DNA of 64,000 nt from Pyrinomonadaceae bacterium (lineage in GTDB: Bacteria > Acidobacteriota > Blastocatellia > Pyrinomonadales > Pyrinomonadaceae). This document shows positions 30,913-42,626 of this stretch, piece by piece. A program made the position numbers and the translations under genes. How positions within the stretch are numbered: the first letter of the stretch is position 1; the number at the start of each line of letters is the position of its first letter. The notes beneath the pieces are model-generated. The model did no database searches. It was not told where the DNA came from and saw only the letters and a program-made list of their open reading frames with translations. Where the stretch lies: the NCBI GenBank assembly GCA_025054715.1, contig JANWYH010000005.1, positions 32,335 to 96,334 on the forward strand, given 5' to 3'.

Positions 30913-32619
30913 ATGAAAAAAGCAATAATTTTTTGGATTTTTATCCTGATTTTTCCTGTAAAATCACAAGATTTTCTTTCTAAAGCCGAAAATCCAACAA
31001 CCAGAGTAGGAGTTCAAAGCGACGCTACGCCTTTAGTTCTGAAGCTAGAAGAGGCAATCAAACTAGCCCTTGAAAACAACAACGAAATAGAAATCGCACG
31101 TAATGAAGTCAAACTCCAAGAGTCTCAATTAAAGTCATTGCTTGGCACTTTTGATCCTGTATTTACGGTTACTCCGCAATTTACTCGCACTTCAACTACA
31201 GGCTCAAGAGCAAGCGATGACTTTAGAGTAAACGCTGCGATGACAAAATTTCTTCGCTACGGTGGTGGAAGCTATCGCATATTTTTCAATAACGTTCAAA
31301 CCGAAAACACATTTTCACAGGCACAGATTAGCTCGGGAGCCGCAAGCGGAACAAGTAAGCTTTATTCATCAAACTTGGGAATCTCGATAACCCAACCCCT
31401 ATGGCGTAACTTTTTAATTGATGAGAATCGAAGGCAGATAAAAATCCAACGAAAGAGGTTGACTCAATCTGATGCCGATTTCCGCCGTCAGGTCATTGAG
31501 ATAATTTCAAGAGTGCAAAAAGCTTATTGGGATTTAGTATTTGCCCTTAAAGACCAGCAAAATAAAGTTGCAAACCTGAATCTATCAAAAGAAAATTTGC
31601 GTCAGATAGAAGCAAAGATAGCAGCCGGTTTATCTGCTCCTATAGCAAAAGCAGAAGTAAATACAGAAATAGCTAATCGTGAAGCAGAAGTTCTGCTAGC
31701 TGTCCAACAAGTTTCGATAGCAGAGAATACACTAAAAGGTCTGATTTTTAAGGACACAAACACAGAAGATTGGAAAAAGAGCATAATCCCGGTTGATGAA
31801 CCTATTTTTGACGAAAACGAAAAAGTTGATCTAGAAGATGCCATAACGCAAGCTATGAGAAATCGCCCGGAGCTTAAACGCTTGAAGTTAGAGCTAGAAA
31901 TCAACAAAATTGACAAAGATTTCTTCAAAAACCAAACCCAACCGCAGATTGATTTGACAGCAAATTTGTCTCTTAACGGATTTAGCTTCGGAAAAATTAA
32001 CACTCAACCTCAAACCTTACCTATAATTTCAGGCAACCCCGCTACGAATCCAGACGCTTTTCTACTTCAGCAAATAAACTTGGTCAGAGCAAACTTGAAT
32101 CCTTCGCTTCCACCCGTCTCGAGTCCGGTCGTTACTATTCCTGGATCACCCAACTTTCTTTCGGGAGGATTCAACCGTTCAATAGCAAATATGTTTCGTA
32201 AAGATGCTCCAAATTATTCATTCGGACTTACTATCTCGTTTCCCTTTAAAAATCAAGTAGCTGAGGCGAATCTTGCATCTTCTGAAATTAACAAACAAAG
32301 GATAGAGGCACAAATAAGAAGCACTGAGCAAGGCATTCTCACAGAAGTTAGAAACGCAGTGCAAGCGGTAGAAACTGCAAGACAAAGAGTACTTGCTGCA
32401 AGACAGGCACGCAAAAACGCTGAAATCCAACTGGAAGGCGAAAGAAAGCTCTTCGAGGCCGGTCGTTCAACAACATTCCTTCTCTTCCAAAGAGAAAACG
32501 CCCTTGCGAACGCAAAAAATGCCGAAATAAGAGCAGAAACCGATTACAAGAAAGCAATCGTTGACCTTCAAAAAGCGACTTCTACGATACTTCAAGCTAA
32601 CAATATCGAGATACGTTAA
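30913..32619 (+). CDS. TolC family outer-membrane efflux protein
   Basis: 568 aa. Signal peptide, then two OEP-type repeats (LEEAIKLALENNNEIEIAR..., LEDAITQAMRNRPELKRL...). Confidence 0.82.
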   Translation: MKKAIIFWIFILIFPVKSQDFLSKAENPTTRVGVQSDATPLVLKLEEAIKLALENNNEIEIARNEVKLQESQLKSLLGTFDPVFTVTPQFTRTSTTGSRASDDFRVNAAMTKFLRYGGGSYRIFFNNVQTENTFSQAQISSGAASGTSKLYSSNLGISITQPLWRNFLIDENRRQIKIQRKRLTQSDADFRRQVIEIISRVQKAYWDLVFALKDQQNKVANLNLSKENLRQIEAKIAAGLSAPIAKAEVNTEIANREAEVLLAVQQVSIAENTLKGLIFKDTNTEDWKKSIIPVDEPIFDENEKVDLEDAITQAMRNRPELKRLKLELEINKIDKDFFKNQTQPQIDLTANLSLNGFSFGKINTQPQTLPIISGNPATNPDAFLLQQINLVRANLNPSLPPVSSPVVTIPGSPNFLSGGFNRSIANMFRKDAPNYSFGLTISFPFKNQVAEANLASSEINKQRIEAQIRSTEQGILTEVRNAVQAVETARQRVLAARQARKNAEIQLEGERKLFEAGRSTTFLLFQRENALANAKNAEIRAETDYKKAIVDLQKATSTILQANNIEIR

Positions 32620-33019
32620 TTTGGAATACAAGAAATGAAAAACAACGACAAATCATCGCTGACAATCACGAGGAGACACCGTTTATCAACCACATCGTAA
32701 ATGAAAACTATCTAGCATTTGAACTGTTCAATGCAAACTTGCAACTATAATGGTCTCACTAAGAAACGCTTATTTTGAACTTTACAAACGCATAGGCAAT
32801 TTCGAGAAAAGATCCGAAAAAGCGTGTACCTTAATTGGCATGAAAATGTTTGCAAAGGATTTTATTTACCAGAAGGACTTGTCATGCTTAGGCTATGATA
32901 GAACAAAGCTTGATGTTAAAACTTCAATTTGTTATGTTCGAAGTGTGTAAAGCAAGGCAAGCTGGAAAAGTGATGATTAGCAAAACTGTGTAATGTAGGC
33001 GAAGCTGGCTAGCCGACAG

Positions 33020-34081
33020 ATGAAGTTTACATTAGAATCAGAAAAATCAAGCGCAAGCGACGGTTGTTCTGGCGATTTGATTATGCAACAAGCCGAGATG
33101 AAAGCAGAATGCCTTATTGCATGCGATCTGTGCAATTCAACAGACTCAGAAGAAATTTCCTTGATCGATCGTGATGGTGATTACCTACGCACGGTGATTT
33201 GTCGGCAATGTGGCCTAGTTTATTCCGATCCTAGACCGAGTTCAGAGCAAATTCGAAATTATTACAGAAGCGGTTATCGTGTGGACTACAAAGCGACGTT
33301 TCAACCTAAGCCAAAACATGTTTATCGGGCTGGCAAGACTGCTTTAGAGCGCTTTCGCAGGATAGAGAGAATCTTGAAACGGAGCTGTCGAGTTCTCGAT
33401 TTTGGTGCTGGTAGCGGAGAGTTAGTTTTCGTGCTGCTTGCAATGGGCTACGAGGCTTCTGGTTTCGAGCCAAACGAAGGCTATGCTCGATTTGCATCAG
33501 AAGTTCTTGGTTTACCAGTTGCTGAAGGATTTTACCAAGACGTTCAGATTGAACCAGAATCACAAGATGTCGTAACCGCTTTCCACGTTATAGAGCATTT
33601 GGAAAGCCCTTATGATGCATTTAAGCGTGTAAGAGATTGGCTTCGGCCGAATGGGCACTTGTTGGTCGAGGTGCCCAATGTTGAAGCGGTTTGTCAATGG
33701 CCCCACAGTCGGTTTCATCGGGCACATCTTTACAATTTCAATCTGGCTACTCTACAGATGCTTGGCAGAAAAGCCGGCTATAGCGTAGTTAATAGCTGGA
33801 TTTCTTCTGATGGCGGCAACATTATGGTGATCTTTCAAAAGAACAACGAACTAGCTCCAGTATCAGTAAAGATTCCAGGCAATTACGAACGCGTGAGCTG
33901 CATCATACGCAACCACACTTATTTGCGACATCTCTTTACTTATTTTCCCTATGTTCGACCTTTTCAGAAGATTGCTGCAAGGATAGAAGAGCAACGAGCG
34001 GTTCGGAAACTAGAATCGCCAAGGGAAATACTAGATGCTTTGGTTATGCGTGAATTACTGCGCAAACGATCAAGTGTCTAA
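33020..34081 (+). CDS. Class I SAM-dependent methyltransferase with N-terminal zinc-ribbon
   Basis: CDLCNS...CRQCGLVYSDP four-Cys ribbon. SAM motif I is VLDFGAGSGE. Downstream FHVIEHLESP and the LLVEVPN pattern fit Methyltransf_23-like proteins. The start codon is uncertain (internal Met candidates exist). Confidence 0.75.
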   Translation: MKFTLESEKSSASDGCSGDLIMQQAEMKAECLIACDLCNSTDSEEISLIDRDGDYLRTVICRQCGLVYSDPRPSSEQIRNYYRSGYRVDYKATFQPKPKHVYRAGKTALERFRRIERILKRSCRVLDFGAGSGELVFVLLAMGYEASGFEPNEGYARFASEVLGLPVAEGFYQDVQIEPESQDVVTAFHVIEHLESPYDAFKRVRDWLRPNGHLLVEVPNVEAVCQWPHSRFHRAHLYNFNLATLQMLGRKAGYSVVNSWISSDGGNIMVIFQKNNELAPVSVKIPGNYERVSCIIRNHTYLRHLFTYFPYVRPFQKIAARIEEQRAVRKLESPREILDALVMRELLRKRSSV

Positions 34082-34217
34082 AAACGAATTAGATTCAAGA
34101 CTCAACTGAAAAGATAGAGAGACGTTTTTTTGGCTTTGGTTCATTTTTATCTGCACAGCTTGAAAATAAGGCAAAATTTGAGTAATTCTTGTGTCATAAA
34201 ATGTTAGCTATCAACTT

Positions 34218-36953
34218 ATGACAACAACTCAAAAGAATAGACTAATAAGCATATCAACTCCTCTCGGAGAAGATTTTTTTCTACTACAGAGATTCACGGC
34301 AAAAGAAGCTATCTCAGAACTTTTTGAAGTAGAGGCCGAACTTTTGCATGAAGAGAAAAATTCAGGTCATCAAACTACTCAAATAGATGCAATATCCTTG
34401 CTAGGTCAATCTGTAACAATTAAAATCACACAGAAAGACGGTGTAGAACGCTATTTCAACGGCATTGTTAAGAAATTTTCGCAAATTGGTCGAAACGTCA
34501 GATTTTCTAGATATTATGCAACAATCGTTCCAAAGGTATGGATTCTTACGCAAAACATTCAAAGCAGAATATTTCAACAACTATCCGTTCCAGAGATTCT
34601 CAAGAAGATTCTAGAAGGATTTGAAGTTTCTTTTCAGCTTCAGAATTCCTATGAACCGAGAAATTACTGCGTTCAATACAGAGAATCAGATTTTGACTTC
34701 GCTTGCCGACTGATGGAAGAAGAAGGAATCTTCTACTTCTTTGAACATACTTCCAATGATCACAAGATGATAATATCCGATACATCTCAATCACATCAAC
34801 AATGTGCAAAAAGCTCTATTCCTTACTTCATAAATGTTGAAAGAAAAGAAGATTGGATAAGTTCCATACACAGATGGCAGATTGATTATAATTTACGAAG
34901 TGGAAAGATTACACTATGGGACCACAACTTTCAACTCCCACACAAAAGCCTAGAAGCGAGCAAATCTAGCCGATTTCTCGTTAGTGCAAATAAAGAAACT
35001 GAAATCTACGAATTTCCTGCAGGCTACGCAAGGAAATACGATGCAATTGACAAAAGCGGTAGTGAAAACTCATCCGAGCTGCAAAAGATTTTTAACGATA
35101 ATAGACATACAGCACAGATTAGAGCTGAAGAGATAGACTCGCAATACAAAGTTATCCATGGCAACTCTGATTGTGCAGCTCTTACAGCGGGTTTTCGTTT
35201 TAAGCTGTATAATCATCCTGATCAATCCGCAAACGGTGAATACGTTTTGACTAAAGTAACACACGAAGCTATGCAAAGCCCCTCCTATGTAAGCGAGGAA
35301 GAAGTAGAAGACGCTTATAAAAACAGTTTTACTTGCATACCCTACGGCGGCATTCATCCTACTTTTCGACCACCCAGAAAAACACCAAAACCGATAATAC
35401 ACGGCAGTCAAACCGCCTATGTTGTAGGACCAGCTGGTGAGGAAATATTTACTGACAAGTACGGGCGTGTTAAGGTTCAATTTCATTGGGATAGAGACGG
35501 AAAGGACAATGAAACTAGCTCTTGCTGGCTTAGAGTTGCGCAAAGTTGGGCCGGAAATGGTTGGGGATCGGTTTTTATTCCTCGTGTTGGAATGGAAGTT
35601 ATAGTTCATTTTCTAGAAGGGGATCCAGACCAGCCAATCATTACTGGTTGCGTCTATAATCCGACAGCAATGCCACCATACAAACTTCCAGAAGAAAAAA
35701 CTAAATCAACCATAAAATCAAATTCATCAAAAGGAAGCGGCGGCTTTAATGAAATACGCTTTGAAGACAAAAAAGGCGAAGAACAGGTTTTTGTTCACGC
35801 ACAAAGACGAATGGACGTGCGAGTAAGAGGCTCTTTGTATGAAACCTGTGGCGGAAATCGCCATGAAAGAATTGGTGTCCGCAGCGATAACCAACCCGGC
35901 GGAAACCTCGTCGTAACAGTAGGTGGAAGCCACGATCTGCATATCAAAGAATCGTTTTACATAAAAATTGATCAAGATTTGAATGAGTCCGTAAAGGGAA
36001 GCGTAGTCGAAGATTATCAAGGCAACCTCTCAACCATTGTTAAAAACAAGGTAGAGCTAAATGCACTAGAAATAACCATCGAAGCCAAGTCAAAGATAAG
36101 CTTGAAGGTTGGCGGAAATTGCATAATGCTTGACCCAAGCGGCATAACTATTGCAGGAACAATGGTTAAGATAAACTCTGGCGGATTTGCTATGGGAACA
36201 GGGAATCCACTAATCACCGAACCATTAGATGCAGAGCCCGCCGATACGGGAGAACCGGGCTTTTTGAATAAGAGAAGAGGAGCTACCGGAAGAGGACGAA
36301 ACCAAAGAAGATTAGAATCGCAGCATTACGTAGCACCTCCAAGACCAGGAGAAGACCCGAGAATAACTGAAATAAGAAATACGTTACAACATTCAGAAAG
36401 AGGACGCCATGCTTTAGAAGTGTACGATAGACACGGAGTAATTCCATCCTTCAACCCAGGAAAAGGCTCTTTCTTCAATGGTTCAACAAACACTGTGAAT
36501 CTAGACCCAAGTCAAAATACAATTACTTCTGCTCTTACGTTCGTTCATGAAATGAATCATGCCGAAGAGTATCATGAACGTAGAACCGGTGATGTTCACA
36601 AGCAATCTAAACAGGACTACATAAATGAAATGCTGCAGGAAGAAGTTGATGGAACAGTAGCTAGCATCGAAGCAAAGATAGAGCTAAAGCAAAACGGTGT
36701 GGACGTTTCAAACGCCCACTTTCCGCTTGAAAATGAATACCTTCAAGCTTATCAAGACGCCGTCAATAGTGCAATAAATAATAATCCCAACTTGAGCGAG
36801 TCAGAGCTAGATGCAATCGGAAGAGCTGCAGGAAGAGATAGAGTAATGAAAGGTTTTCAAGACGGAGAAGTTGTCACTTCTACAAATGGGCAAAAATACC
36901 CGGATTATTATGGTAGCTACTGGGATCAAGTTAATGGAGGCGGTAAAAAATAA
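34218..36953 (+). CDS. vgrG: Type VI secretion spike protein VgrG (TssI) with C-terminal HExxH metallopeptidase-like extension ('evolved' VgrG)
   Basis: 911 aa. The N-terminus ISTPLGEDFFLLQRFTAKEAISELFEVEAELL is gp27-like. The gp5 OB-fold is WLRVAQSWAGNGWGSVFIPRVGMEVIVHFLEGDPDQPIITGCVYN. The beta-helix ends at ...GTMVKINSGG near aa 655. An Arg-rich linker follows, then a ~200-aa domain containing FVHEMNHAEEYH (36546-36575). Confidence 0.9.
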   Translation: MTTTQKNRLISISTPLGEDFFLLQRFTAKEAISELFEVEAELLHEEKNSGHQTTQIDAISLLGQSVTIKITQKDGVERYFNGIVKKFSQIGRNVRFSRYYATIVPKVWILTQNIQSRIFQQLSVPEILKKILEGFEVSFQLQNSYEPRNYCVQYRESDFDFACRLMEEEGIFYFFEHTSNDHKMIISDTSQSHQQCAKSSIPYFINVERKEDWISSIHRWQIDYNLRSGKITLWDHNFQLPHKSLEASKSSRFLVSANKETEIYEFPAGYARKYDAIDKSGSENSSELQKIFNDNRHTAQIRAEEIDSQYKVIHGNSDCAALTAGFRFKLYNHPDQSANGEYVLTKVTHEAMQSPSYVSEEEVEDAYKNSFTCIPYGGIHPTFRPPRKTPKPIIHGSQTAYVVGPAGEEIFTDKYGRVKVQFHWDRDGKDNETSSCWLRVAQSWAGNGWGSVFIPRVGMEVIVHFLEGDPDQPIITGCVYNPTAMPPYKLPEEKTKSTIKSNSSKGSGGFNEIRFEDKKGEEQVFVHAQRRMDVRVRGSLYETCGGNRHERIGVRSDNQPGGNLVVTVGGSHDLHIKESFYIKIDQDLNESVKGSVVEDYQGNLSTIVKNKVELNALEITIEAKSKISLKVGGNCIMLDPSGITIAGTMVKINSGGFAMGTGNPLITEPLDAEPADTGEPGFLNKRRGATGRGRNQRRLESQHYVAPPRPGEDPRITEIRNTLQHSERGRHALEVYDRHGVIPSFNPGKGSFFNGSTNTVNLDPSQNTITSALTFVHEMNHAEEYHERRTGDVHKQSKQDYINEMLQEEVDGTVASIEAKIELKQNGVDVSNAHFPLENEYLQAYQDAVNSAINNNPNLSESELDAIGRAAGRDRVMKGFQDGEVVTSTNGQKYPDYYGSYWDQVNGGGKK

Positions 36954-37633
36954 TGCAAATAGCGGTTTTGACCTTAATTTTATTACTTCAACAAGTTTGT
37001 GCGAAAAGTCAAAATCACACTGATAACTCAAACATGGAGAGGAATCAAATGAACCAAAATGAAATAGTGGAAAGAATAAAAGAAGCAGATGAGCTTCTAG
37101 CAGATAAAATTACTAGACGAGAAGCAACTTTAGAAAAACGAGAAACACCTTTCTTAAAGAACGGAACCATCTACCGAATCGCTGAATTCAACCCAACGAG
37201 ACCTATAATTCACCATATCGTTTTTTTCAATGACAGAAAGGTAGTAATCCTTGAAGGCGACGAACAAAGCTTTTATTCGTCTGTAAGAGAAGCTGGTTTG
37301 GTTCTTGACAAAGCCAACGAGCGCGTTGAGTATGTAAAGGCTTACCTTGAAATAGTATATGCTAGTGGTAAACGATTGCAGATTCTTAACGACATAGATG
37401 AGATTACAGAAAGACCAAACCTCACTGAAGAAAAAAGAAAAATTTTTGCTGAAGTTAAAGAAAAATATAGATCGCTCGTAAAACCGCCTTCATGCTCTTT
37501 AACGAATTGTATTTTATTTGCAGTAAAGGGACAAAGTTTAGTCAAATTTGACTTGAAAATCTCAGGCGACGGAGAGATAAAAGTAGAAGAGGAAGTTTTG
37601 GAAAAAGAACTACTGATACCCTATACAATTTGA
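36953..37633 (+). CDS. Hypothetical protein; candidate cognate immunity protein for the VgrG C-terminal domain
   Basis: 226-aa ORF whose ATG overlaps the vgrG stop by 1 nt (TAATG). GGAGG lies about 12 nt upstream. The hydrophobic N-terminus (MQIAVLTLILLLQQVCA) lacks a basic n-region, so export is uncertain. No recognisable motif. Confidence 0.6.
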   Translation: MQIAVLTLILLLQQVCAKSQNHTDNSNMERNQMNQNEIVERIKEADELLADKITRREATLEKRETPFLKNGTIYRIAEFNPTRPIIHHIVFFNDRKVVILEGDEQSFYSSVREAGLVLDKANERVEYVKAYLEIVYASGKRLQILNDIDEITERPNLTEEKRKIFAEVKEKYRSLVKPPSCSLTNCILFAVKGQSLVKFDLKISGDGEIKVEEEVLEKELLIPYTI

Positions 37634-37639
37634 TTTGAT

Positions 37640-38146
37640 ATGCCGCAAGGTCCAGCCGCAAGAGCTTTAGTTGATACCGTAGCACACCCGCTACCACCTG
37701 TTTTATCGCCCGGACCAGGAAGTCCAAACGTCTTAATAGGCTTTGCGCCTGCGTGGCGTGGTATTCCGCTTGCTGCAGTAGCAGCTCTTCAAGCAGCTAA
37801 AACAGCAGCCGATACCGCAATTCGCGCAGCAGAAGCAGCAACTGCCGCCGCTGCCGGCACGCCTGGAGCTGCAGCAGCCTATGCAGCTGAACAAGCTACA
37901 AAATCAGCAGCTTTATCTTCAATGTCAAGTGCAATAACAAGTGCTGCAGCTTCCGGAGCAGATATTCACAACTGCATGACTCCCACGCCTGTTCCACCTC
38001 ACGGACCCGGCGTTGTGATTAACGGTTCTGCAACCGTAATGATAAATTTTCTTCCGGCAGCAAGGCAGGGCGATACAATCCTTGAGGCTATAGGCCCTGC
38101 AAACACGATTACCAAAGGCGAACCAACAGTTATAATTGGCGGATAA
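37640..38146 (+). CDS. PAAR domain protein (T6SS spike tip) with internal Ala-rich insertion
   Basis: 168 aa with three PAAR-type motifs: GPAARALVD (aa 4-12), APAWRG (aa 36-41) and INFLPAARQGD (aa 135-145). It has the C-terminal pattern HGPGVVINGSATVMIN...GEPTVIIGG. Residues ~44-108 are Ala-rich low-complexity sequence. Confidence 0.85.
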   Translation: MPQGPAARALVDTVAHPLPPVLSPGPGSPNVLIGFAPAWRGIPLAAVAALQAAKTAADTAIRAAEAATAAAAGTPGAAAAYAAEQATKSAALSSMSSAITSAAASGADIHNCMTPTPVPPHGPGVVINGSATVMINFLPAARQGDTILEAIGPANTITKGEPTVIIGG

Positions 38147-38161
38147 AGCAAAAACAAAGGC

Positions 38162-38839: not shown

Positions 38840-38902
38840 AAGCTTAACCTAGAAGTATTATAAGTTGAATCTAAGCATCTACCCATGATATATTTTTCTC
38901 GT

Positions 38903-38989
38903 GCGGACGTGGCGGAATTGGTAGACGCGCAGGTCTCAGAAGCCTGTGGGCTTTAGCCCGTGGAAGTTCGACTCTTCTCGTCCGCACCA
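38903..38989 (+). tRNA. tRNA-Leu (anticodon CAG), CCA encoded
   Basis: gcggacgtggcggaattggtagacgcgcaggtCTCAGAAgcctg...variable arm...ggaagttcgactcttctcgtccgcacca. Acceptor gcggacg/cgtccgc, anticodon loop cuCAGaa. Confidence 0.9.
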
Positions 38990-39019
38990 AGCTTTGCGAC
39001 GGCGCAAGCCAAATTTACC

Positions 39020-39045
39020 AAAAAAGGGCGGTATAAAAACCACCC
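39020..39045 (-). terminator. Intrinsic terminator downstream of glnA
   Basis: The minus-strand RNA reads GGGUGG-UUUUUAUA-CCGCCC followed by UUUUUU, placed 8 nt after the glnA stop. Confidence 0.6.
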
Positions 39046-39052
39046 CACCAAG

Positions 39053-40480
39053 CTAAACATCGTAATACATTGCAAATTCAAATGGATGCGGTCTTAGGCG
39101 CATTTGGCTGACTTCTTTTTCGCGCTTATAAGAAATCCATCTTTCGATTATCTGTTCTGTAAAAACACCGCCTTTAAGTAGGAAGTCGCAATCGTTTTCT
39201 AGGGCTTTTAAAGCATCGTCTAAGCTACCCGGTAAAGACGGAACATTGGCGAGCTCTTCTGGTGGAAGATCGTAAATGTCTTTGTCTAAAGGCTCACCTG
39301 GATCGATTCTATTCTCAATTCCATCAAGCCCGGCCATCAGCATCGCCGAAAAAGCCAGATAAGGATTACAGGAAGGATCAGGCGGACGAAACTCTATTCG
39401 TTTTGCTTTTGGAGATGCCGAAAACATAGGTATTCTAATAGCTGCTGAGCGATTCCTTGCCGAATATGCGAGATTGACAGGTGCTTCAAAGCCGGGAACT
39501 AAACGCTTATAACTATTTGTTGTTGGAGCAGCAAAGGCTACAATCGCTGGTGAATGTTTTAACAAACCGCCAATATAGAATCTAGCTAGTTCGGACAACC
39601 CGGCATAACCATCGCCAGCAAACAGAGGCTCTCCATCTTTCCAAAGTGACTGATGACAATGCATTCCAGAACCATTATCACCAAAGACTGGCTTCGGCAT
39701 AAAGGTAGCCGTCTTACCAAATCGAATAGCCGTATTCTTTACTACATACTTGAAAAGCATCAGGTTATCAGCAGTATGTAGAAGATTCGAATACTTAAAA
39801 TCAATCTCACACTGCCCAGCAGTTGCAACTTCGTGATGATGGCATTCAACCTTTATACCTACCTCTTCTAAGGTCAAAGAAATAGCATTTCGTAGGTCAA
39901 CAAGCGTATCCAAAGGAGGCACAGGCACATATCCTTCTTTACTACGAATATGATAGCCTCTGTTCGAAACTCCGTCCTCGTGGCTAGAACGTCCCGTATT
40001 CCAATGACCTTCTTCAGAGTTAACCATATAGCCGGCAGAATGCTGATTATTGTGATAAAAAACCTCATCAAATACGAAAAATTCGGCTTCTGGACCAAAA
40101 TACGCAGTGTCGGCGATACCCGTAAATCTCAGATAATTCTCTGCTCTTAGGGCAACACTGCGTGGATCAAGACCGTAACCTTCTTTCGTAATCGGATCAA
40201 CAACATTTGCAAAAAGGCAGATTGTAGTTTCATCAGTAAACGGATCGATCCAAAAACGCGATGGGTCAGGAATCAAAAGCATGTCTGACTCGTTTATAGC
40301 TGCCCAACCCCGCAAACTCGAAGCATCAAAACCAAATCCGTCTTCAAAAGAATCTTCCGTTAGCTGATCGATAGGAAAGGTTAAGTGGTGCCACGCACCT
40401 AGAAAATCCGTAAATCGCAAAGAAACGAATTTTACCCCGTGCTCTGCTGCATAGTGTAATATGTTTTTCGTGTTGTTCAT
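39053..40480 (-). CDS. glnA: Glutamine synthetase, type I
   Basis: 475 aa. Shows [10 protein letters not shown], the [14 protein letters not shown]-binding motif and a [13 protein letters not shown] region. Confidence 0.94.
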
Positions 40481-40575: not shown

Positions 40576-41922
40576 TCATCTATCGTAGATTTCTACCTTT
40601 CCTTCGTAAGCCTCTGCAACGGTAAGACCATTGTTGTTCAAGAGAAAGACCTTGCTGAAATTTCTCTGTTTACCGACGTTGACTAATTTTTCAACCATTG
40701 CTTTCTTTTCACTATCGTTCAGAGTCTTCCATTTGTCTGTCACGACACCAATCAAAAGCTCATTACTTATTCTACCTGCTTTCAGATAACCTTGGAATTC
40801 CGTGTTTTCAATTTGAAATATCTCGACATTCTTCTTCGTCACGCCGCTCATCCCGAATTCTACATAGACGTAAAGCGCCAAGGCCAAACCAATCGTTAGA
40901 AATAAAACCACCAGTAACCATTTGTTTGTGATAGTAAAGGAAAAACTCGGGATAAATGGAGTAATTTCCTGCTTTTTCTTTTCTTTCTTAGGTTTTTTCT
41001 TAACCAGAATTTCCGTTTGTGTCTCAGGTTCTGAAAACCTTACTACTTCTTCCCTTTTTGCATCCACAATATCAGCAACGTTAAAAGTTTTAGCTATTGC
41101 TTCAGATAAAATATCGTCAATAGAAGCACCGTATCTTGACTTTACAGCTTCTGCACCAAGCACTTCTTTTTCACGCAAAACAAGCTCGACACAATGGTTC
41201 CCAAAAGAAACATTACAATCCACAGAAGCGGCCAATACGTAAGGAGCTAGAAATTCTTCTCCCAAGCTTGCTTTGAAATTTAGAAGTTCGCTATGAATGC
41301 CACTTTGAAGCAGCTCTCCGAGAGTATTGAAATTTTTAGCTCTTTCAACAAATTCTCTAAATCTTGCTAGAACCTCGTCCTTTTGCTCAGAAAATAAAGG
41401 AGCATTTGCCCATTCTTTGTAAAAGCCTTCAAATTTCATTCTTATTTCATCAGTCGAAGCTACAAGCTCACGGCTCTTATTCCAAGTTTGCGTGCTAAAA
41501 AGTTTTGTTACCAATACATCCAACTTAGAACGGATATGTTCGGAGAAAGGTAATCCAGTGTAGAACCTAATCAGGGAAACTAAAGCCTGAGGACTTAAAG
41601 GTGGTTTTGAATTCTCGCAGTATAATCTAAATTCGGAGGGCATGATTTTCTTGTCTCTTTGCGCCAAGGATAAATACCAAAGCTCTATTTGCTCTTCTAT
41701 TTTTTCCTCGATTTCTGATGTTTTTTCCCTGTTTTCGGACTGAATCGCTTTCGAAAAGTCATGCAGAATGCTTTTTAGCTGTGATACATTAAACCTTTCG
41801 TCAGAATTAGCCCCTTTGCCCTTCTCTATACTAGAAAAGATATAATCAACTAGCTGGAGAGAGCTTACCTCGCTTTCAAAATCGCGATAAGACTTTTCCA
41901 TATTTTGATAACCATCAAACAT
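40576..41922 (-). CDS. Hypothetical single-pass membrane protein
   Basis: 448-aa ORF starting 10 nt downstream of the pilin gene. It has a Lys-rich stretch (KKKPKKEKKKQE), then one TM helix (WLLVVLFLTIGLALALYVYV) and a ~95-aa C-terminal domain. No recognisable family. Confidence 0.6.
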   Translation of the reverse strand: MFDGYQNMEKSYRDFESEVSSLQLVDYIFSSIEKGKGANSDERFNVSQLKSILHDFSKAIQSENREKTSEIEEKIEEQIELWYLSLAQRDKKIMPSEFRLYCENSKPPLSPQALVSLIRFYTGLPFSEHIRSKLDVLVTKLFSTQTWNKSRELVASTDEIRMKFEGFYKEWANAPLFSEQKDEVLARFREFVERAKNFNTLGELLQSGIHSELLNFKASLGEEFLAPYVLAASVDCNVSFGNHCVELVLREKEVLGAEAVKSRYGASIDDILSEAIAKTFNVADIVDAKREEVVRFSEPETQTEILVKKKPKKEKKKQEITPFIPSFSFTITNKWLLVVLFLTIGLALALYVYVEFGMSGVTKKNVEIFQIENTEFQGYLKAGRISNELLIGVVTDKWKTLNDSEKKAMVEKLVNVGKQRNFSKVFLLNNNGLTVAEAYEGKVEIYDR

Positions 41923-41931
41923 CTTTTCTCT

Positions 41932-42345
41932 TCACGGCATAATTTCAGTTATTTGTCCTGTATGGTTTCCTGAGATTGTATATGGCAAATCAATACCGCC
42001 GGGCTTTGACGCAACAATGGTAAATTCATTTCTTAGTTGCGAATCGGTCGGATTTACAGGAACCATCTGAAACGTAAAACTACCACGGTAAAGAGTGTTT
42101 CCCGATATTTCACCGAGTCCACCGCCTTGGTGAGCATTCAATTCATCAAGCCTAGCAAACCTTGCGTTCTGAGAGTAATAACTAAACTCAGCAGATATGA
42201 TAGTTCTCATAGTAGCGTAGGCATTTGCATTCTCCGCAGCACTTCTTGCCCTACGCAAGAACGGAAAAACTATCACGGCTAGTATCCCTAAAATTACCAA
42301 AACTATTAAAAGCTCGACCAAAGAAAACCCCTTCTCTTTTCTCAT
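41932..42345 (-). CDS. Type IV pilin / pseudopilin with prepilin-type N-terminal cleavage-methylation motif
   Basis: The ATG at 42345, preceded by AGGAAGGAG, gives MRKEKG|FSLVELLIVLVILGILAVIV (G-1, F+1, E+5). The ORF track start at 42408 adds 21 unlikely residues. Confidence 0.85.
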   Translation of the reverse strand: MRKEKGFSLVELLIVLVILGILAVIVFPFLRRARSAAENANAYATMRTIISAEFSYYSQNARFARLDELNAHQGGGLGEISGNTLYRGSFTFQMVPVNPTDSQLRNEFTIVASKPGGIDLPYTISGNHTGQITEIMP

Positions 42346-42626
42346 CTTTCTATTTCTCCTTCCTAAAAAATGACACTTTTTGGCACCTAAACTGACAAAT
42401 ATCTGCACTAAGCTTTTCTGAGATTTCGCAAAAAATCATTGATTTTCAAAATTTTTCAAATAATGCAAGGCTTCATTAAATTTCTCCAATTCACCTTTGG
42501 CAAATCTTATGCCAAAAAATTTCGTTTATACGCGGAAAATAATTGTTGATGAAGATTTCATTTTTTGCTAAATTTTTGCTATTCATATAAGTTTTAGGCA
42601 ATAATTCCAAGTTTGGGGTAGTTGAA

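Follow-up and report, generated by a model that had tools for sequence, protein, structure and literature searches.

What is the spike of a type VI secretion system (T6SS) doing between two housekeeping genes, in a stretch of DNA where no core gene of such a machine is found? The question is posed by 64 kb of the genome of a member of the Pyrinomonadaceae (the window, by which we mean this whole stretch), in which a VgrG spike protein with a toxin-like C-terminus, a small open reading frame (ORF) that we call ORF226 and a PAAR spike-tip protein follow one another between tolC and yggS. The host family belongs to the class Blastocatellia of the Acidobacteriota, in keeping with the Acidobacteriota-like background sensed by the original prediction, an earlier reading of this DNA, and the host is a soil/hot-spring Acidobacterium. 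What is known of T6SS weaponry comes almost wholly from Proteobacteria and Bacteroidota. Acidobacteriota rank among the most abundant bacteria of soils and, to our knowledge, their interbacterial weapons are essentially unstudied; a literature search found no paper linking Pyrinomonadaceae with T6SS. We think it probable that the locus is an auxiliary (or ‘orphan’) T6SS spike module, made up of a VgrG-borne toxin, an immunity gene and a PAAR, and served by a T6SS-i that lies elsewhere. The genes concerned, all of them where the original prediction had placed them from tolC to yggS, are these:

30913-32619, plus strand: TolC-like outer-membrane factor of the OEP family, 568 aa
32620-33019: non-coding stretch from tolC to the methyltransferase gene, 400 bp
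33020-34081, plus strand: class I S-adenosylmethionine-dependent methyltransferase, 353 aa, Methyltransf_23
34218-36953, plus strand: VgrG, 911 aa
34218-36341, plus strand: VgrG spike core, aa 1-708, with gp27-like hub, OB fold, gp5-C beta-helix and linker
36342-36953, plus strand: VgrG C-terminal toxin domain, aa 709-911 and the stop codon, DUF6782-type, putative gluzincin-like metallopeptidase
36953-37633, plus strand: ORF226, 226 aa, candidate cognate immunity protein, predicted to be exported or membrane-anchored
37640-38146, plus strand: PAAR spike-tip protein, 168 aa, PAAR_motif, with the PAAR fold split by an insert
37760-37957, plus strand: Ala-rich insert of the PAAR protein, aa 41-106, about 65 aa
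38162-38839, minus strand: YggS, 225 aa, TIGR00044, convergent to the PAAR gene
38903-38989, plus strand: tRNA-Leu(CAG), 757 bp beyond the cassette

The spike protein is a T6SS VgrG (TssI) and not a phage spike. The T6SS-specific model TIGR03361 scores 611 bits against a cutoff of 186, TIGR01646 scores 417 bits against 122, and the Pfam domains of the spike are Phage_GPD, Phage_base_V and Gp5_trimer_C. Together with the PAAR_motif match described below, this upholds the call of a T6SS spike cassette, and the phage tail spike that the original prediction had named as the thing to check for is not what the profiles find. The same protein has been deposited as MCS6874272.1, from a Pyrinomonadaceae metagenome-assembled genome (MAG), and recurs in the Logan assembly SRR25904939; a variant with two residue differences is found as MCX7640412.1 and MDW8304839.1. 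Acidobacteriota commonly have full-length homologues, C-terminal domain included, with 47-78% identity, and the best match among GTDB representative genomes stands at 53%.

Do these three genes have anything to do with a complete secretion machine? At the level of the family, they do. The VgrG-ORF-PAAR trio is conserved in all nine lineages that we examined (the window, L082/L083, L084/L085, L086/L087, L002, L003, L101, L102 and L103), and it is found in three kinds of place:

At the end of the main T6SS operon, in five lineages: L002 (Pyrinomonadaceae SSF22), L003 (a Chloracidobacterium MAG), L101, L102 and L103
Detached, between TolC and YggS: the window and L082/L083, VgrG 78% identity
Detached, beside a PBP1A gene: L084/L085 (GCA_026002895.1) and L086/L087, VgrG 72% and 71% identity

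Where the trio closes the operon, the order is TssA-TssB-TssC-Hcp-TssE-TssF-TssG-ClpV-VgrG-ORF(194-264 aa)-PAAR, with a protein of about 200 aa before VgrG in three of the five cases, and in L002, L003, L101 and L102, whose VgrGs are 53-62% identical to that of the window, fumC comes next. NCBIfam models recognise the core proteins of L002 with scores of 200 bits for TssB, 740 for TssC, 120 for TssE, 690 for TssF, 345 for TssG and 1298 for ClpV; its Hcp reaches 56 bits, just under the cutoff of 58.9. In the Pyrinomonadaceae MAG GCA_017983495.1 the T6SS-i is complete, with TssA preceded by TssK, TssL and TssM. More than 120 TssC clusters were found at an identity of at least 86%, many of them named Pyrinomonadaceae, and the MAG SMAG_U7147 combines a main cluster (L025) with an orphan VgrG island that lies apart from it (L011). 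Because orthologous trios end T6SS operons and a full cluster exists in the family, the delivery machine is, at family level, a canonical T6SS-i, and so the original description of that machine as uncharacterised can be given up.

The operons of the relatives have some features of their own. The protein between ClpV and VgrG belongs to no recognised family, shows a sub-threshold caspase-domain match only and is absent from the detached cassette of the window; we find it in L002 (9332-9928), L003 (9331-9927), L102 (9296-9934), L114 (18420-19058) and L118 (18396-18995). TssK-TssL-TssM-TagJ lie directly upstream of TssA in L118. In L104 and L114 it is rpoC and an SdrD_B/CarboxypepD_reg protein, respectively, that precede TssA, so the membrane-complex genes of these two must lie elsewhere, and it seems common in the clade for the T6SS genes to be spread over several loci.

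How old, then, is the arrangement in the window? The original prediction saw an accessory segment of heterogeneous composition wedged between housekeeping genes, and it is the accessory part of this claim that has survived; composition gives no sign of a foreign origin. The window and L082 are colinear from the tRNA-Leu(CAA)/PGK region onwards, with 76% nucleotide identity through tolC, 72% over vgrG-ORF226 and 74% over PAAR-yggS, and their proteins are 81% (TolC), 78% (VgrG), 79% (PGK) and 70% (YggS) identical; since these values are alike and the site is the same, the cassette has diverged in step with its flanks and is no recent insertion. Synonymous divergence (dS) exceeds 1.5 or is not computable by NG86, and because it is thus saturated only nonsynonymous divergence (dN) can be compared. 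Between the window and L082 this amounts to 0.137 for the VgrG core, 0.133 for the toxin domain and 0.066 for PAAR, and to 0.120, 0.142 and 0.198 for the flanking TolC, PGK and YggS. A cassette dN comparable to that of housekeeping neighbours means purifying selection, and argues against a decaying relic. As for composition, third-position G+C (GC3) departs from the window mean by -0.6 standard deviations in VgrG, -1.5 in ORF226, -1.4 in PAAR and +1.4 in the methyltransferase, all of them within 1.5; the total G+C of the PAAR gene does stand out (z = +4.2), but with a GC3 that is typical or low the excess stems from Ala/Gly/Pro codons. Over longer times the cassette is accessory, with three different contexts overall: in L088, at a similar distance and found by a metagenome scan with a two-sequence TolC alignment, PGK-GAPDH-TolC are kept (TolC 77%, GAPDH 92.5%) and are followed by argR-argG-argC-argD-argF-argB, with no cassette. 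What we see here is an old, selected auxiliary module of native composition.

The methyltransferase gene, which had been counted among the members of the cassette, does not belong to it. L082 has TolC-VgrG-ORF-PAAR-YggS without it, and among 113 fetched loci it occurs on the window's own contig (L001) and in none of the 112 others; it is an unrelated, lineage-specific neighbour (72 bits to Methyltransf_23, with an N-terminal CxxC...CxxC segment) and not part of the T6SS module. The 400 bp before it hold at most a 66-aa mechanical ORF and no Rfam match, and cannot be aligned to the 534-bp spacer that separates tolC from vgrG in L082. Rfam, promoter and terminator scans gave nothing beyond the tRNA. 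At the other end, the stops of PAAR and yggS are 15 nt apart, with no terminator-like hairpin between them in the hairpin scan, and this, like the position of the tRNA-Leu gene, agrees with what had been described.

The same observations bear on the idea that the segment is a recent genomic island, or the remnant of a prophage or eCIS (extracellular contractile injection system) tail spike, that was inserted between tolC and yggS. The site is indeed variable, as the arg operon of L088 attests, and the cassette of the window does have a lineage-unique methyltransferase beside it and a tRNA-Leu gene nearby. Yet the cassette of L082 sits at the same site with divergence equal to that of its flanks and is not flanked by a tRNA, GC3 is native, and the T6SS-specific VgrG model is matched at three times its cutoff. 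Moreover, Pfam scans of 46 window ORFs returned housekeeping families only (SMC, pyruvate/2-oxoacid dehydrogenase E1/E2, glutamine synthetase, arginine decarboxylase, HtrA and alanine racemase, for example), with no phage, eCIS, integrase or transposase family among them. This idea is largely refuted, and we regard it as very unlikely indeed. As a separate matter, the cassette region has a rearrangement breakpoint at its downstream edge, where synteny with L082 stops right after yggS (38840-40480 of the window against 14848-17315 of L082): the window continues with tRNA-Leu(CAG) and glnA. In L082 a DUF4344 gene comes next, together with one for an M17 leucyl aminopeptidase, and there is no tRNA.

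Returning to the auxiliary module, we can ask what it would deliver. The VgrG of the window is an evolved (specialised) VgrG, in that it has a separate C-terminal domain with an HExxH+E motif, and this domain is exchanged in related cores. P0031, a VgrG with a Peptidase_M91 C-terminus, is 67% identical to the window protein over aa 3-708, and the similarity ends at aa 708; other close VgrG cores carry ATLF-type C-terminal domains or none. Such a swap at aa 708 is the cassette exchange typical of polymorphic toxins. The shared core ends in a conserved Pro/Arg-rich linker (...DAEPADTGEPG.LNKRRGA...APP; the linker of the window ends in ...SQHYVAPP), which is likely to be the recombination joint. 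The stretch at aa 681-708 (36258-36341) is the point where related VgrG cores switch among DUF6782, Peptidase_M91 and ATLF C-termini. P0031, of the M91-type evolved VgrGs the one closest to the window's core, is itself an orphan: in L117 (Logan SRR11727984) its neighbours are serS, pyrF and lpxD, and the 10 kb around it hold no T6SS core gene. Scattered evolved VgrGs appear to be typical of the window's sub-clade.

The domain beyond the linker was rightly called toxin-like, and by its sequence the payload, which had been thought uncharacterised, can be classed in the Pfam family DUF6782, a ‘putative metallopeptidase family’ that no paper mentions as far as our literature search found. The whole protein scores 35.4 bits and the isolated domain 39.1 bits, where the cutoff is 27, and the match covers VgrG residues 705-828 and only positions 18-146 of the 241 in the profile. 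HEMNH at aa 777-781 (36546-36560) and Glu808 (36639-36641) form the HExxH+E motif of a gluzincin-like arrangement; HExxH is kept in all 52 full-length homologues, and H777, E778, H781 and E808 are invariant in the homologue alignment. An AF2 model of the domain, built with 18 sequences, is confident and mostly helical (pLDDT 89.7). Its best Foldseek matches in the PDB, at E 0.2-0.5, are selecase, jannalysin and abylysin, all three minimal zinc peptidases, along with IrrE/PprI and the protease domain of ArdC. A sequence-profile search of the PDB gave a single marginal match, to the ADAM8 active site (E 1.5); PF13699 found no match at E <= 1, and no chain of the Pseudomonas aeruginosa toxin VgrG2b was among the 50 Foldseek matches listed.

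A profile search of 1.84 billion proteins with the domain retrieved 775 cluster representatives at E <= 1e-3, 176 of them at E <= 1e-30, and the company that it keeps is varied. Sampled carriers include VgrG fusions, a PAAR fusion (P0249), proteins in which the domain lies downstream of the eCIS_core domain PF13699 (P0262, P0270 and P0353), which we take to be the family formerly called DUF4157, and P0255, which is WXG100-like and has the domain four times. Many of the proteins are only 180-320 aa long, and a Pfam scan of one of these, P0263 (252 aa), shows this domain alone; there are also giants of 4,000-6,700 aa with up to ten copies, such as P0250 with 6678 aa (length and copies as given by the profile search). 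Because these carriers are typical of T6SS, eCIS and systems like the type VII secretion system (T7SS), the domain behaves as a polymorphic warhead, and its distribution suggests that one DUF6782-type warhead is shared by T6SS, eCIS and T7SS-like carriers.

The second gene of the trio is the candidate for immunity. ORF226 is as tightly coupled to vgrG as was first noticed, its start overlapping the VgrG stop by 1 nt (TAATG), and 6 nt separate it from the PAAR gene. A homologue lies directly 3' of a DUF6782-type VgrG in nine lineages out of nine, in three genomic contexts, and these homologues are related to the window ORF at pairwise E <= 1e-24 and recognised by a hidden Markov model (HMM) at E <= 1e-56 for three loci left out of the model. 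Eight of the nine, that of the window included, have a hydrophobic N-terminus, often after Arg/Lys, followed by a soluble domain of about 190 aa; in ORF226 itself the segment is short (about aa 2-16, Kyte-Doolittle 1.5) and resembles a Sec signal peptide. Within the trio this gene also evolves fastest (dN 0.33 against L082), and identity to L002 falls from 83% for PAAR and 59% for the VgrG core to 37% for the toxin domain and 24% for ORF226. If a toxin and its immunity protein co-evolve, one expects just such a gradient, with toxin and ORF226 diverging faster than core and PAAR. From the juxtaposition of the two genes, their overlapping start and stop, the predicted export signal and the rapid co-divergence, we infer that ORF226 is most likely a periplasmic immunity protein and that the toxin would have an extracytoplasmic bacterial target. 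Profile searches, which had been proposed for all four ORFs of the segment, assign the methyltransferase, VgrG and PAAR; ORF226 matches no Pfam or NCBIfam family. Its AF2 model, from five sequences, is an alpha/beta fold (pLDDT 82) with no PDB neighbour by Foldseek, the best match having E 0.1 and a TM-score below 0.3.

The third gene encodes a PAAR protein with an interrupted fold. PF05488 (PAAR_motif) is matched at 40.5 bits (cutoff 27) over aa 119-168, and the NCBIfam model T6SS_PAAR_dom reaches a mere 29 bits against a cutoff of 124, because of an Ala-rich insert. In the alignment, GPAAR...D...H and APAWR come before the insert and LPAAR with His/Cys ligands after it; H16, H108/C110 and H121 are visible as candidate zinc ligands, and the N-terminal PAAR...D...H element probably supplies a zinc ligand. 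The insert itself is amphipathic, runs to about 65 residues of which 30 are Ala, and follows the second PAAR motif, with a maximum Kyte-Doolittle mean of 1.5 over 19 residues and so no clear transmembrane helix. It is kept in VgrG-adjacent PAARs of Acidobacteriota-labelled loci (L002, L003, L008, L011, L013, L067, L080, L082, L085, L087, L101 and L102) and absent from canonical PAARs (96-118 aa) and from the PAAR of L103, which is labelled ‘Deltaproteobacteria’; we found no published description of it. The protein has a dN of 0.05-0.07 to its orthologues and 91-93% identity across the detached lineages. We also considered whether this might be a prePAAR effector and rejected it: the spacing is AARxxxDxxxH and not AARxxDxxxH, there is no clear transmembrane segment, no DUF1795 (Eag) protein occurs in the window, and the protein has no C-terminal toxin domain.

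How might the auxiliary module work? The three genes would be co-transcribed. A VgrG trimer would form the spike, each monomer carrying a putative DUF6782 zinc-metallopeptidase toxin at its C-terminus, and the PAAR would cap it. No DUF4123, DUF1795 or DUF2169 adaptor is found among the 46 Pfam-scanned window ORFs, as the original prediction had noted, the reason being that VgrG itself carries the toxin. The loaded spike would be fired by a canonical T6SS-i whose genes lie elsewhere in the genome, and the protease would then act outside the cytoplasm of a neighbouring bacterium, in the periplasm or the cell envelope, so that the likely target is both periplasmic and bacterial. ORF226, exported or anchored through its N-terminal hydrophobic segment, would shield the producer and its kin. 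In evolutionary terms the trio would be the terminal module of an ancestral T6SS operon, relocated to housekeeping sites in the window's clade.

Several results weigh against this account. As first reported, the window lacks T6SS core genes: tblastn with about 250 TssA/B/C/Hcp/E/F/G/ClpV proteins of related loci found no match in it, and none of the 15 proteins of a complete Pyrinomonadaceae T6SS (TagH, TssK, TssL, TssM, TagJ, TssA-G, Hcp and ClpV) found a match by tblastn or phmmer. The TssC search yielded no match traceable to the window's own MAG. The toxin domain has no significant Foldseek match in the PDB, the best being the E of 0.2 mentioned above, and it is from the conservation of its motif that we infer catalytic activity, which we accordingly put no higher than a presumption. 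For ORF226, no sequence or structural relative was detected among known immunity proteins. Finally, a non-bacterial target of the toxin is possible because sister VgrGs carry M91 or ATLF domains.

The first of these points would also fit if the cassette were a relic, an intact but non-functional leftover in a genome that lost its T6SS or never had one. In the closest clade (the window, L082, L085, L087 and L117, an orphan of the M91 type), all the VgrGs examined stand apart from core genes, and no T6SS has been tied to the window's own MAG. Against this, none of the three ORFs is disrupted in four detached lineages, the cassette has the same dN as the housekeeping genes beside it at saturated dS, the catalytic residues are invariant and the PAAR is highly conserved across the detached lineages, and T6SS is widespread in the family. 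We consider a relic to be quite unlikely, and the combination of purifying selection and T6SS prevalence in the family makes it likely that the genome of the window does encode a T6SS.

The last point raises a different concern, which is that the effector might be anti-eukaryotic or have dual targets, with a protist, fungal or other eukaryotic substrate, and that ORF226 might be an accessory or unrelated envelope protein. M91- and ATLF-type families act on eukaryotic proteins in well-studied systems, Peptidase_M91 itself gives a weak, sub-threshold match over the HExxH region of the toxin domain (E 0.057), VgrG cores closely related to that of the window carry M91 or ATLF domains, and the same toxin domain is found fused to an eCIS_core domain. 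VgrG2b, for its part, has bacterial as well as eukaryotic targets (PMC6899460). Pulling the other way are the strict linkage of toxin and ORF226, which holds in all nine lineages, the greater divergence of both relative to core and PAAR, and the predicted export signal of ORF226, and on balance a eukaryotic substrate seems to us unlikely.

There is also a bolder way of looking at the auxiliary module, which we offer tentatively and consider rather doubtful. It would combine three uncharacterised parts, namely a DUF6782 zinc-peptidase warhead family common to T6SS, eCIS and T7SS-like carriers and with a new extracytoplasmic target, a cognate immunity family whose fold lacks a PDB relative, and a PAAR subclass whose cone is split by a 65-residue Ala-rich helical insert. 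So far, PAARs with this insert have been seen here only in Acidobacteriota-labelled loci, and the insert may have a function of its own, such as interaction with membranes or, at the spike tip, the docking of the toxin that VgrG carries. In a still more radical variant, the window's clade may be without a T6SS and the trio may arm a different contractile machine.

Elsewhere in the window, one small operon deserves a mention. It adjoins glnA on the minus strand (40576-42408) and encodes a 158-aa protein with a prokaryotic N-terminal methylation motif, as in a pilin or pseudopilin, and then a 448-aa protein without a Pfam match.

How does all this compare with known systems? The closest characterised analogue is VgrG2b-PA0261 of P. 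aeruginosa, where toxicity of the C-terminal HExxH metallopeptidase is confined to the periplasm and the immunity protein PA0261 needs its signal peptide (PMC6899460). Both spikes are evolved VgrGs with a C-terminal HExxH zinc metallopeptidase domain (a putative one in the window), both are directly followed by a small ORF with an N-terminal signal (PA0261 is a periplasmic immunity protein, ORF226 a candidate for one), both lie away from a T6SS core cluster (vgrG2b in a satellite island of the H2-T6SS), and both carry evidence that C-terminal domains have been exchanged by recombination. There are differences too. The peptidase of VgrG2b is of the DUF4157/PF13699 type and that of the window of the DUF6782 type, the VgrG of the window lacks a DUF2345/TTR segment above threshold, ORF226 is unrelated to PA0261, the hosts are Proteobacteria in one case and Acidobacteriota in the other, and the window module has a dedicated, insert-bearing PAAR. 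The likeness is one of analogy, not of family membership.

Auxiliary vgrG-effector-immunity-PAAR clusters, such as the Aux clusters of Vibrio cholerae and orphan hcp/vgrG/PAAR islands (bioRxiv 10.64898/2025.12.03.692189), likewise consist of a stand-alone spike with its payload, with the core T6SS elsewhere and toxins that are swapped as modules. The window differs from the Proteobacterial examples in being without a DUF4123, DUF1795 or DUF2169 adaptor, and in that the ancestral position at the 3' end of an operon is directly visible in relatives. In those relatives (L002, L003, L101 and L102), gene order, toxin family, immunity-candidate family and insert-bearing PAAR are the same as in the window, but the trio comes after ClpV and before fumC and not, as here, between tolC (plus a methyltransferase gene) and yggS. 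PrePAAR or split-PAAR effectors (Tse6 and Rhs proteins) also have a PAAR fold that is interrupted by an insert, and their hallmarks are AARxxDxxxH, N-terminal transmembrane domains, an Eag (DUF1795) chaperone and a C-terminal toxin (PMC7773334); their insert comes after the first strand, whereas that of the window PAAR is Ala-rich and comes after the second PAAR motif. An auxiliary vgrG island that pairs an evolved VgrG metallopeptidase with a periplasmic immunity protein is an established arrangement; here such a module sits in an under-studied phylum and has uncharacterised toxin and immunity families. The locus and its relatives provide a clean and testable candidate pair of effector and immunity protein, and the related loci show directly how the terminal module of an operon turns into an ‘orphan’ island.

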